From a virus (Duplodnaviria; Heunggongvirae; Uroviricota; Caudoviricetes), in IMG/VR virus record IMGVR_UViG_646311924_000007, positions 33,898 to 97,897 of that record: a DNA stretch of 64,000 nt; one strand, written 5' to 3'. The notes below the pieces were generated by a model. The model was not told the DNA's origin and made no database searches. It saw only the letters and a program-made list of their open reading frames with translations. The translations under genes and the position numbers were made by a program. Shown piece after piece: positions 38,810 to 40,126 of this stretch; position 1 is the first letter of the stretch, and every line of letters starts with the position of its first letter.

Positions 38810-38998
38810 GTGGTAGTGCACCTTAACATCGGGAGAATAATCGTGTCATCCAAGGTTAATTATGAGTCGCTGGCATCGGTCATGCCGCGTAATGAACAGG
38901 AAACAGATGCTGTAGTGGACCCTGTAATCGCTGAAATGAATGCTCGCCTGGAGGCTGAATTTGCAGCTGAGAATGAACATACCACCCAGGGCGACTAG
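38810..38998 (+). CDS. small hypothetical protein (62 aa)
   Basis: Short acidic ORF with upstream GGAG; overlaps next gene. Confidence 0.3.
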   Translation: MVVHLNIGRIIVSSKVNYESLASVMPRNEQETDAVVDPVIAEMNARLEAEFAAENEHTTQGD

Positions 38999-39602
38999 GA
39001 CTGTTTTTTGTGTCGGTAGCGGTCCTTCACTCACTCGTGAGGACTGTGCTGCTATAGAAAAAACTGGCTGTTCAATCATCGCGGTTAACAATTCCTGGCA
39101 GATGTTCGATGACATTTATGCCTTATACGCCGGTGATTTGTCATGGTGGAAGCAATACGGTTCCACCATACCGGGAGGGAGGTTCCGCAAAGTGACAGCC
39201 AACCTGGCGGCGGCGAAATCATTTTCGTTGGAGTACAGGCGATATTGTGGACCGGCGGAAGGGGTAAATAGCGGCGCGCAGGCTATCAGTCTGGCTGCTG
39301 AATCAGGGGCTGAAGTAGTGGTATTAGTCGGCTATGACTGTTCTCTGCAAAACGGCCTTCATTGGCATGGCGCGCACCCTCAAGCACTACGGAATCCAAC
39401 GCAGGTGTCTATTTCAAAATGGCAACAGCAGTTCCTGGATACCCGCAAAAAACACGCAGATTTACATATTTTGAATGCAAGTAGGAGCAGTGCAATTCAA
39501 TGTTTCCCAAGAATAAATTTAGAGGCAGTGATCGCGTTATTATCGTCGGCAGTGGCCCAAGCGCCGCAAACTTTGTTGCGCCGCGCGGAGTGCCGATTAT
39601 AG
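38940..39602 (+). CDS. DUF115/MptE-like (GSGPS motif) protein, paralogue 1
   Basis: VFCVGSGPS...IIAVNNSW...VVLVGYDCS motifs; true start probably downstream of the track start; 3' end overlaps paralogue 2. Confidence 0.4.
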   Translation: MLAWRLNLQLRMNIPPRATRTVFCVGSGPSLTREDCAAIEKTGCSIIAVNNSWQMFDDIYALYAGDLSWWKQYGSTIPGGRFRKVTANLAAAKSFSLEYRRYCGPAEGVNSGAQAISLAAESGAEVVVLVGYDCSLQNGLHWHGAHPQALRNPTQVSISKWQQQFLDTRKKHADLHILNASRSSAIQCFPRINLEAVIALLSSAVAQAPQTLLRRAECRL

Positions 39603-40126
39603 CGGTCAATGGGGCCATCGACTGGCTTAACCGCGCTTCTTATTTTTTCACACTTGATCCATCGCCAGACAATATGCGGCGCGTTGGTCGTGGCCGCCGT
39701 CGCCGTGGTGTTTGTTATTGCATGGCACTACCCGATGTTAAAGAACGTGAAGTCAGAGACGGCGTTCTGTGCTTCCGTCGTGTGGCTGAACGCGGCATGG
39801 AGCCAAAAAATACGAATTCTCCCGAGTGGTGGGCGTGGCGCTGGTCCGGACATTTCGGCCTTTGCGAAGATGAGAATGAAATTGCCAGCGGCAATAGTGC
39901 ATATGGTGCTCTGAACCTGGCTTTCCATATCGGATTCAAACATGTAGCCCTGGTGGGCGTTGACGCTACGCAAGAACCACGAGTTCACTCCGGCGGCACG
40001 CCAAAAAATCTAAGTCACCTGCCTTTGTTATTCCAGTCTGCGCGTGAACAGATTGACGTTGTTTCATGCGGGAAAATGGGAGGTATTCCGCAGATGACTC
40101 TTAAAGAATGGCTGAAGAATACATGA
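39500..40126 (+). CDS. DUF115/MptE-like (GSGPS motif) protein, paralogue 2
   Basis: VIIVGSGPS...[10 protein letters not shown]...VALVGVDAT motifs in the same order as paralogue 1. Confidence 0.45.

Follow-up and report, generated by a model that had tools for sequence, protein, structure and literature searches.

Glycosyltransferases and pyrophosphokinases provide the closest described systems to the genes considered here. The Maf flagellin O-glycosyltransferases, represented by Magnetospirillum Maf (PDB 5mu5) and Clostridium botulinum Maf, are flagellin-binding proteins of ~600–630 residues with three domains, encoded in flagellar glycosylation loci together with sugar-biosynthesis genes. 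When expressed in E. coli, a Maf enzyme O-glycosylates Ser/Thr with CMP-Kdo (PMC11339370). The GT42 enzymes Cst-I and Cst-II of Campylobacter jejuni are sialyltransferases that use CMP-Neu5Ac as donor and lipooligosaccharide galactose as acceptor, with a catalytic His (His188 in Cst-II) beyond the GxD strand serving as general base. For phage virions, Che8 and related mycobacteriophages carry glycosyltransferase sets that glycosylate capsid proteins and provide a glycan shield (Freeman et al. 2023, via PMC11256854); this is the sole established precedent known for the role proposed below. Protein-directed GT8 enzymes include glycogenin, the Skp1 alpha-galactosyltransferase Gat1 and pneumococcal GlyE. 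Lastly, MptE, an archaeal 6-hydroxymethyl-7,8-dihydropterin pyrophosphokinase (PDB 8sd5), performs an ATP-dependent step of cofactor biosynthesis.

Few model phages are as old as P1, yet for twenty years its pmgO–pmgQ block has carried nothing more than a placeholder name, 'putative morphogenetic function'. Databases already list pmgO and pmgP together with the family label; in our literature searches, functional work on pmgO, pmgP or pmgQ did not turn up. Here we examine these genes in a 64,000-nucleotide stretch of viral DNA (the window) and across phages.

Overlapping pmgO and pmgP genes in a P1-like phage-plasmid

The element in the window is a P1-like phage-plasmid, ~97% identical to P1. 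A sequence-only reading had picked out two open reading frames at 38940–40126, next to ppp; both are present, are pmgO and pmgP, and do adjoin ppp (Table 1). PmgO (220 aa) shows no difference from P1 PmgO; conservation covers a core at residues ~20–200 and does not extend to the first ~15 and last ~18 residues of the annotated protein. PmgP (208 aa) differs from its P1 counterpart by 2 substitutions and, relative to PmgO, carries a ~35-residue insertion (EPxxKxSPEWWLWRW).

Table 1 Features of the pmgN–pmgQ region, and dbn, by position in the window
Feature	Position	Strand	Description
dbn	32007..33005	+	Possible GT-B (group 1) glycosyltransferase; Glycos_transf_1 25.0 bits vs cut-off 26.4
Promoter PpmgN	within 38744..38799	+	-35 at 38744-38749, -10 at 38765-38770; identical to annotated P1 feature
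C1 repressor operator Oppp	38783-38799	+	Upstream of pmgN-pmgQ operon; identical to annotated P1 feature
pmgN	38843..38998	+	Small ORF, 51 aa, overlaps pmgO start; position matches P1 pmgN
pmgO (P7 hdmB)	38940..39602	+	Predicted single-domain member of MptE-like/Maf/GT42-like superfamily
pmgO/pmgP overlap	39500..39602	+	103 nt, out of frame; pmgP in -1 frame
pmgP (P7 hdmC)	39500..40126	+	Divergent pmgO paralogue; phrog_2111, E 7e-132
ppp	40108..40800	+	NinI/lambda-type Ser/Thr metallophosphatase; Pfam Metallophos E 5e-15, phrog_246
pmgQ 5' fragment	40797..41001	+	GT8-like GT-A glycosyltransferase; collinearity with P1 ends at 41001
IS629/IS1203-like element (IS3 family)	41002..42311	+	1310 bp; terminal repeats TGAACCGCCCCGG
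pmgQ 3' fragment	42312..42811	+	Collinear with P1 pmgQ to stop codon; phrog_1962

The codons for the PmgP GSGPS motif (from 39548) fall within the pmgO reading frame, and an AGGAG Shine-Dalgarno sequence stands 12 nt 5' of the pmgP ATG. A Citrobacter rodentium prophage has a comparable pmgO/pmgP overlap of 94 nt, and in the protein P0051 the two genes are joined in frame. Within the overlap, a canonical AAATTTA heptamer occurs at 39515 in the pmgO frame, where slippage would mimic this natural fusion. The heptamer is missing from the overlaps of C. rodentium, Pantoea, Zhongshania and the others compared, and pmgP has its own AGGAG–ATG start; we therefore take it as a chance occurrence and reject a programmed -1 frameshift joining PmgO to PmgP.

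The P1 annotation implies that the pmgN–pmgQ operon would be repressed in the lysogen and expressed after induction. Given the C1 operator, one would not readily expect a phenotype in lysogens. The first gene of the operon, pmgN, has no Pfam match, and in the locus survey PmgN matches came from close P1 relatives only.

PmgO and PmgP as predicted sialyltransferase-like paralogues

PmgO and PmgP have the same motif order (GSGPS, IIAVN, D, NSG/GNS, GxD), which in PmgO includes VFCVGSGPS, IIAVNNSW and VVLVGYD. The sequence-only reading had noted three of these motifs in this order (VxxVGSGPS, IIAVNxxxxW, VxLVGxD) and called the genes paralogous. The order holds in both proteins, with the correction that 2 residues, not 4, separate the PmgO Trp from IIAVN. 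By pairwise BLASTP the two proteins match in the N-terminal motif only, at E 0.003. When profiles of the two families (34 PmgO and 37 PmgP homologues) were compared by hhalign, the alignment spanned 162 columns (98% probability, E 1.5e-13), and each protein also matches the other's PHROG family. Together, the profile alignment and PHROG cross-matches indicate that the likeness is a real if distant paralogy and not chance; by these comparisons, pmgO and pmgP are distant duplicates.

Conservation is concentrated in these motifs. A GxGPS nucleotide-binding loop followed by (N/T)SG and then GxD is nearly or fully invariant, in the same order, in both families. Invariant PmgP positions are P20, N37, G38, D53, G131, N132, S133, G153, D155 and H173, with S18, G19 and S21 kept in at least 90% of members; PmgO has invariant Asp residues D66 and D133. 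Both families also have invariant His on the C-terminal side of GxD, H141 and H143 in PmgO and H173 in PmgP, which do not align with each other. The PmgO pair sits in an invariant HWHG motif, in a loop modelled at low confidence (pLDDT 57–70).

The resemblance to the DUF115/MptE family, also proposed from the sequence, was supported by profile and structure comparisons. The Pfam MptE-like family (PF01973) matches the two window proteins at 23.4 and 20.9 bits, below its gathering score of 34.6. Among relatives, matches at E up to 1 were found for 33 of 34 PmgO and all 37 PmgP proteins, and the fused or extended relatives P0051 (44.6 bits) and P0216 (44.1 bits) pass the gathering threshold. A search of the PmgP profile against PDB sequences gave no match at E up to 10. 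Structure searches with the AlphaFold models of both proteins specifically returned Maf, MptE HPPK and Cst sialyltransferases, with the glycosyltransferase Maf as top match of each; for PmgP (AF2 model, pLDDT 94.3), Foldseek returned Maf, MptE HPPK, SteA and Cst-II/Cst-I. The models thus predict a Rossmann-like fold common to Maf, MptE and Cst, not an unrelated one. On profile and model evidence, PmgO and PmgP are divergent single-domain paralogues in the MptE-like/Maf/GT42 'sialyltransferase-like' superfamily.

Each of the described relatives differs from the phage proteins. PmgO and PmgP, single domains of ~200 residues, align to the Maf central domain only (165/632 residues, 12–16% identity). 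They are encoded in phage late regions and, unlike Maf, are partnered by a GT8-like enzyme and methyltransferases. The GNGPS and TSG...SGID motifs of Cst-II align with those of the PmgO and PmgP families, but its similarity to the PmgO profile is not significant (E 0.2–0.7), the Cst enzymes are longer, and CMP-Neu5Ac is not made by common hosts, E. coli K-12 among them.

A conserved pmgP–pmgQ pair in phage late regions

In every sufficiently long locus examined, pmgQ accompanies pmgP, and the two occur together across Gamma-, Beta- and Alphaproteobacteria, Bacteroidota and Gemmatimonadota. All cassette hosts seen are LPS-bearing diderms. The finding that pmgP and pmgQ are a conserved mobile pair, usually found with pmgO, is new here. 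Natural fusions link the products in several orders (O–P, P–Q, Q–P, Q–P–methyltransferase and methyltransferase–P), and some cassettes have added GT-A genes, a 'glucosyltransferase', or SAM or FkbM methyltransferase genes. The sequence-only reading had suggested that the paralogues could form a sugar-modification toolkit with glycosyltransferase-like genes at 32007 and 40797. The synteny and fusions strongly favour this in the case of pmgQ, at 40797. The case for dbn, at 32007, is weak: its GT-B match is sub-threshold and its association with the cassette loose, with Dbn homologues no more than a few kb away in a Buttiauxella prophage (L103) and at L123 only.

The phosphatase gene ppp is missing from all non-P1 cassettes examined and from the distant P1-like loci L113, L120, L122 and L123. 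It is a P1-group insertion between pmgP and pmgQ, outside the conserved cassette, and we rejected it as a functional partner since it was seen in close P1 relatives only.

The cassette is found in unrelated prophages, in their late or structural regions and often right after the major capsid gene. It lies directly 3' of an HK97-type major capsid gene, among head–tail adaptor genes, at L005, L006, L099, L100, L107, L108, L111, L116, L119 and L121; cassettes at other loci adjoin lysis or terminase genes. In Pseudescherichia, UBA7338 and Serratia islands, the cassette is interleaved with invasin-like Big_1 proteins. Every context seen was either a phage late/structural region or an island bounded by an integrase and holding invasin-like genes. 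The post-capsid location may reflect no more than tolerance of accessory-gene insertion at that site. As a separate observation, the four capsid proteins beside cassettes that we checked all end in G/S-rich tails. We gave no weight to Ser-rich capsid C-terminal tails as acceptor sites, as a difference from cassette-free capsids could not be shown.

PmgQ itself most resembles protein-directed GT8 enzymes. Its DxD (D79, D81) and C-terminal His (H208) are invariant in the family and align with the corresponding GT8 motifs, although PmgQ is shorter (~210–230 residues) than these enzymes. Compared with GT8 structures, the PmgQ profile matched Gat1 (E 1.5e-6, 31 bits), glycogenin (E ~5e-6, 29 bits) and GlyE (E 8e-4), versus 16.5 and 4.9 bits for the LPS enzymes WaaJ and WaaO. 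The family misses the threshold of the Pfam GT8 model, with E 0.31 for one homologue.

A candidate late glycan-building cassette

The constant company that pmgO and pmgP keep with pmgQ in phage late regions suggests that the three probably build a short sugar chain on some target. We favour, with moderate confidence, the view that pmgO/pmgP/pmgQ constitute a small mobile glycan-assembly cassette carried by temperate phages of diderms in late or structural regions. After induction, PmgQ, as a GT8-like retaining hexosyltransferase, would transfer a hexose from a UDP-sugar, and PmgP and PmgO would add one or two residues of a CMP-activated ulosonic acid. No nonulosonic-acid or sialic-acid synthesis genes were found in any cassette examined, so this donor must come from the host; CMP-Kdo is plausible, as E. 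coli K-12 and similar hosts have no other such CMP-activated donor. Extra enzymes in some phages may extend or methylate the product. For the acceptor, our leading guess is some protein synthesized simultaneously: in phages this might be one of the virion proteins, and in a chromosomal island the Ig-like adhesins. In P1, neither knockout nor CRISPRi knockdown of pmgO, pmgP, ppp and pmgQ produced a defect in plaques or antirestriction; these genes are dispensable in P1 and the function of the cassette is accessory.

A more specific proposal is that P1 and many other Gram-negative temperate phages O-glycosylate their own capsid or neighbouring head proteins late in infection, with a PmgO/PmgP/PmgQ complex drawing on host CMP-Kdo and UDP-hexose to make a short, Kdo-capped and sometimes methylated glycan. 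We regard this version as tentative and, taken whole, unlikely. A text search of the P1 virion proteome paper returned no 'glycos', PmgO, PmgP or PmgQ. As the mycobacteriophage work is summarized in PMC11256854, the glycosyltransferase sets there resemble the cassette in being phage-encoded and non-essential, but they belong to other enzyme families, serve phages of Actinobacteria and lie near the genome 3' end; virion glycosylation is demonstrated in those phages and hypothesized for the cassette.

The pmgO–pmgQ block can now be described as sialyltransferase/Maf-like paralogues locked by synteny and fusions to a GT8-like transferase and methyltransferases; together with its recurrence beside the major capsid genes of unrelated prophages, this turns an unannotated block into a concrete, cheaply testable question. 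A virion target would extend phage glycan shielding to Gram-negative phages of interest in genetics and therapy, and the O-Kdo reading would give the first virion glycosylation system known beyond actinobacteriophages and the first O-Kdo modification of a protein known in nature. A virion target would also make compact CMP-sugar transferases, of ~200 residues, available to glyco-engineering. Were no glycosylation to occur, the block would be an ordinary dispensable accessory cassette.

Alternative targets and chemistries

Modification of the cell envelope would assign the cassette a WaaZ-like role, attaching Kdo and hexose to an envelope glycan, the LPS core or some other, and thereby either masking the receptor (P1 adsorbs to LPS core) to exclude superinfecting phage or keeping progeny off debris. 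WaaZ is linked to the addition of a third Kdo. K-12 WaaZ is itself a sub-threshold MptE-like match (E 7e-7), and the O–P fusion P0051 has a faint precomputed match to WaaZ_KDO_III (PF27901). LPS core transferases occur among GT8 members, the hosts seen all bear LPS, and some prophages hold the cassette in moron-type positions beside lysis genes. However, direct comparison led us to reject a specific kinship to WaaZ: the PmgO and PmgP profiles score it (11.7 and 14.0 bits) no better than Cst-II, with an hhalign probability of 14% for both families. The PmgQ profile likewise ranks WaaJ and WaaO far under glycogenin and Gat1, and no LPS or polysaccharide export genes adjoin the cassette in the loci examined. 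Moreover, the P1 operon lies behind a C1 operator and many prophage cassettes are packed tightly among head genes, which points to late, lytic expression, too late to replace surface LPS. We judge an envelope target quite improbable.

Alternatively, one or both paralogues could act like MptE, whose fold is compatible with the PmgO and PmgP models, or like thiamine pyrophosphokinase, and use ATP to pyrophosphorylate a hydroxymethyl or sugar acceptor. The product would be an activated intermediate for PmgQ or a modified metabolite or signal, in a pathway that P1 Ppp could share. The matching Pfam family bears the MptE name, and the invariant Asp of both families could bind Mg2+. The closest structure for both predicted models is nevertheless the glycosyltransferase Maf, and synteny and fusions tie the phage proteins to a GT8-like glycosyltransferase and methyltransferases, a pattern typical of glycan assembly. 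Furthermore, ppp does not travel with the cassette beyond the close P1 group, and the neighbours seen included no genes for the synthesis of pterins, thiamine or hydroxymethyl bases. The sequence-only reading had allowed either nucleotide-sugar or pterin pyrophosphoryl transfer; the evidence favours glycosyl transfer, and we consider pyrophosphokinase chemistry very unlikely.

Late decoration of phage DNA to evade restriction would suit expression alongside packaging genes, and DNA-acting phage glycosyltransferases are well known, but it is highly implausible given that no gene for a hydroxymethylated or glycosylatable base stands beside the cassette in P1 or the other loci examined, that antirestriction is unchanged in P1 knockouts of unknown-function genes, and that P1 DNA is routinely cut and sequenced with, to our knowledge, no hypermodification reported.

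An insertion sequence splits pmgQ in the window

In the window, pmgQ is divided by an IS629/IS1203-like element, and as a result the glycan-building cassette we favour is probably crippled in this phage-plasmid. The 3' fragment still matches the phrog_1962 'glycosyltransferase' family at profile positions 78–230 (E 2e-82). A search of PLSDB returned no plasmid with the IS/pmgQ junction; matching plasmids label the same IS 'IS3-like element IS1203 family'. Its orfA and orfB correspond to HTH_Tnp_1 and rve, respectively, and the insertion is flanked by a 3-bp target duplication, GAC, at 40999–41001 and 42312–42314.

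PmgO and PmgP are divergent paralogues of the DUF115/MptE-like superfamily

The sequence-only reading took the tandem proteins PmgO and PmgP for paralogues sharing one motif order. That order is present in both, but the spacing reported for IIAVNxxxxW does not apply to PmgO, which reads IIAVNxxW. BLASTP between the two matches the GSGPS region only (E 0.003), which alone would be weak evidence of kinship. Homologue searches returned 51 matches for PmgO and 328 for PmgP, and 34 and 37 sequences, respectively, were aligned. Aligning the two family profiles gave a 162-column match at 98% probability (E 1.5e-13), and each protein also matches the other's PHROG family. 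On these profile comparisons, PmgO and PmgP are true paralogues at ~23% identity. Both families keep the GSGPS loop, an Asn following the second strand, an Asp (YAGD in PmgO, FTLD in PmgP), NSG or GNS, and GYD or GVD, together with an invariant, family-specific His (HWHG in PmgO, LSHL in PmgP). PmgP also contains a ~35-residue insertion (EPxxKxSPEWWLWRW).

pmgO and pmgP share 103 nt, read in different frames, so that PmgP's nucleotide-binding GSGPS loop is encoded within pmgO. A canonical slippery heptamer, AAATTTA, also lies in the pmgO frame; slippage there would produce an O-P fusion resembling a natural fusion protein (P0051). This heptamer is not kept in other overlapping pmgO/pmgP pairs.

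Assignment to a DUF115/MptE-like family, also proposed earlier, stood up to profile and structure searches, which placed neither paralogue in an unrelated fold. Against Pfam MptE-like (PF01973) the two proteins score 23.4 and 20.9 bits, both below the cut-off of 34.6, and 33 of 34 PmgO relatives and all 37 PmgP relatives match. In PHROGs, the PmgO family carries the label 'alpha-2,3-sialyltransferase' and the PmgP family is listed as unknown. AlphaFold models were confident (pLDDT 85.6 for PmgO, 94.3 for PmgP), and the top Foldseek match in the PDB for both was the Maf glycosyltransferase 5mu5, followed for PmgP by the archaeal MptE pyrophosphokinase 8sd5, SteA and the Campylobacter sialyltransferases Cst-II and Cst-I. 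Together, these results place PmgO and PmgP almost certainly within the superfamily.

A conserved three-gene cassette

We scanned 5 loci found by exact protein look-up, 18 species-level genome loci and 25 non-clonal viral contigs with profiles for PmgO, PmgP, PmgQ and an extra GT-A protein. PmgP and PmgQ co-occur in all loci of sufficient length, extending to relatives the suggested association with the glycosyltransferase-like gene at 40797 (pmgQ), which fusions also support. PmgO is found in most loci (missing from L006, L100, L103 and L106). The metallophosphatase gene ppp is limited to close P1 relatives, and the distant P1-like loci L113, L120, L122 and L123 read pmgM-pmgO-pmgP-pmgQ-pmgR without it. 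Extra enzymes between or after the core genes comprise a class-I SAM methyltransferase (L099, L104 and others), an FkbM-type methyltransferase (L105, L106, L114), a nucleotide-sugar-transferase-like protein (L004, L005, L098, L101, L109, L111) and a 'glucosyltransferase' (L100).

Among 1.84 billion representative proteins, 592 PmgP-family clusters are mostly ~200-residue stand-alone proteins. Natural fusions join PmgO-PmgP (P0051), PmgP-PmgQ (P0180, P0244), PmgQ-PmgP (P0264), PmgQ-PmgP-methyltransferase (P0228) and methyltransferase-PmgP (P0265). Such predicted fusion proteins show that PmgO, PmgP, PmgQ and the methyltransferase work in one pathway, which looks like glycan assembly. The PmgQ profile matches the GT8 structures of Skp1 alpha-galactosyltransferase Gat1 (E 1.5e-6), glycogenin (~5e-6) and pneumococcal GlyE (8e-4), and its family has an invariant DxD motif and C-terminal His.

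Although pmgO, pmgP and pmgQ are long-known P1 genes, and automated pipelines already label PmgO and some PmgP relatives sialyltransferases, we found no published function for any of the three in the literature. We class PmgO and PmgP as a new branch of a known superfamily, minimal and carried by phages. The main new information is their partner genes, along with the conserved cassette and a testable hypothesis.

Separately, the gene dbn, which follows the ban helicase gene, shows a GT-B (Glycos_transf_1) signature below threshold, and L103 and L123 carry dbn homologues close to the cassette. P1-like elements may thus carry a fourth sugar-transferase-like gene.

Phage cassettes occupy late regions

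All phage cassette sites are in late regions. In HK97-type prophages (Pseudomonas, Ochrobactrum, Zhongshania, Methylophilaceae and several metagenomic lineages), the cassette lies directly 3' of the major capsid gene (L005, L006, L099, L100, L107, L108, L111, L116, L119, L121), sometimes across one small gene or head-tail adaptor. These cassettes precede the head-completion genes, and the reading frames overlap or abut; in L121 an adaptor gene sits within the cassette. Other cassettes follow terminase and portal genes (L101, L109, L112), come before or after the lysis genes (L003, L004, L103, L110, L115, L117) or, in P1, lie between tail genes and pmgR/pmgS. The position next to the capsid gene may reflect no more than a site that tolerates insertions.

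In several prophages the major capsid gene and pmgO are separated by a gene for a 94-98-residue protein without a family match; this protein could be a decoration protein or acceptor. Four of four capsid proteins adjoining the cassette end in short Gly/Ser-rich tails.

Outside phages, the cassette genes occur in an island bounded by an integrase in Pseudescherichia and UBA7338 (L093-L097) and in a related Serratia region (L007). Here, pmgO, pmgP and pmgQ homologues are interspersed with a 1178-aa inverse autotransporter and several other invasin-like Big_1 proteins, which may be adhesins glycosylated by the cassette.

Features of the window and of surveyed loci
Feature	Element	Coordinates	Remark
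dbn	window	32007-33005	
pmgM	window	38198-38776	directly upstream of operon
PpmgN promoter and C1 repressor operator Oppp	window	38744-38799	every base as in P1
pmgO	window	38940-39602	hdmB in P7; collinear with P1
pmgO/pmgP overlap	window	39500-39602	
AAATTTA	window	39515	
pmgP	window	39500-40126	hdmC in P7; collinear with P1
ppp	window	40108-40800	between pmgP and pmgQ; collinear with P1
pmgQ	window		downstream of ppp, interrupted; collinear with P1
IS629/IS1203-like element (IS3 family)	window	41002-42311	1310 bp, inside pmgQ
Region replacing P1 pmgT-pmgV	window	45845-51513	~5.7 kb
Capsid gene	L005	5179-6375	tail GSLSES
Capsid gene	L006	4900-6330	tail SGATGS
Capsid gene	L099	7841-9214	tail GNLSGAS
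Capsid gene	L100	3396-4628	tail GSLKDGS
94-98-residue protein	L099	9280-9564	
94-98-residue protein	L116	5061-5357	
94-98-residue protein	L119	421-705	
Invasin-associated region	L093 (also L094-L097)	5357-16419	integrase gene first in L093
Invasin-associated region	L007	1513-9442	

A candidate protein glycosylation pathway

Maf, the closest structural relative of PmgO and PmgP, carries out cytoplasmic O-glycosylation of a protein using CMP-activated ulosonic acids as donors. Because the cassettes examined contain no sialic, pseudaminic or legionaminic acid synthesis genes and the identified hosts are all LPS-bearing diderms, the simplest assumption is that PmgO and PmgP draw on CMP-Kdo, and PmgQ on a UDP-hexose; we advance CMP-Kdo tentatively. 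It is a donor for a Maf enzyme expressed in E. coli (PMC11339370). The pair may make two successive or differently linked additions or form a heterodimer, and the O-P fusion and translational overlap fit close cooperation.

The acceptor would be a protein, and in phages virion proteins. A protein is favoured by co-expression with structural proteins, the glycogenin/Gat1-like character of PmgQ and the adhesin neighbours in the island. Capsid glycan shielding in mycobacteriophages (Che8 and relatives, as described in a citing paper) is a precedent. The acceptor is the weakest point of the model, and a virion protein is a leading but rather uncertain candidate. Knocking out pmgO, pmgP, ppp or pmgQ singly in P1, or knocking them down by CRISPRi, leaves plaque formation and antirestriction unaffected, and text searches of the P1 virion proteome paper found no mention of 'glycos', PmgO, PmgP or PmgQ.

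WaaZ-like modification of LPS is possible, but is hard to square with late expression under repressor control, and resemblance to WaaZ, WaaJ and WaaO is weak: the E. coli LPS GT8 enzymes WaaJ and WaaO score 16.5 and 4.9 bits with the PmgQ profile versus ~30 for Gat1/glycogenin. The fold is compatible with pyrophosphokinase activity, but the partners of PmgO and PmgP do not fit such chemistry, and glycosyltransferase chemistry is probable. Glycosylation of phage DNA lacks an acceptor-base gene.

The operon in the window is P1-like and interrupted

Window positions 38000-43200 match phage P1 and the related P7, SJ46 and RCS47 at ~97% identity, and we assigned gene names by collinearity with the annotated P1 record. 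PmgO is identical to that of P1 and PmgP differs at 2 residues. Since PpmgN and Oppp are kept base for base, the pmgN-pmgQ operon should be repressed in the lysogen, as in P1, whose record also has a late promoter further upstream.

The P1 alignment in pmgQ stops at 41001 and picks up at 42307, around an IS element with terminal repeats TGAACCGCCCCGG and a 3-bp target duplication (GAC). With pmgQ split by it, the cassette in the window has probably either lost its function or retains PmgO and PmgP alone. No PLSDB plasmid has the insertion junction, so the insertion may be peculiar to this phage-plasmid.

Upstream, pmgM, still labelled 'putative morphogenetic function', resembles a VRR-NUC/Holliday-junction-resolvase-like nuclease (Pfam sub-threshold; phrog_5702 E 4e-27). 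Downstream, the P1 alignment ends at 45844 and restarts at 51514, and the intervening DNA encodes several 130-280-residue proteins.
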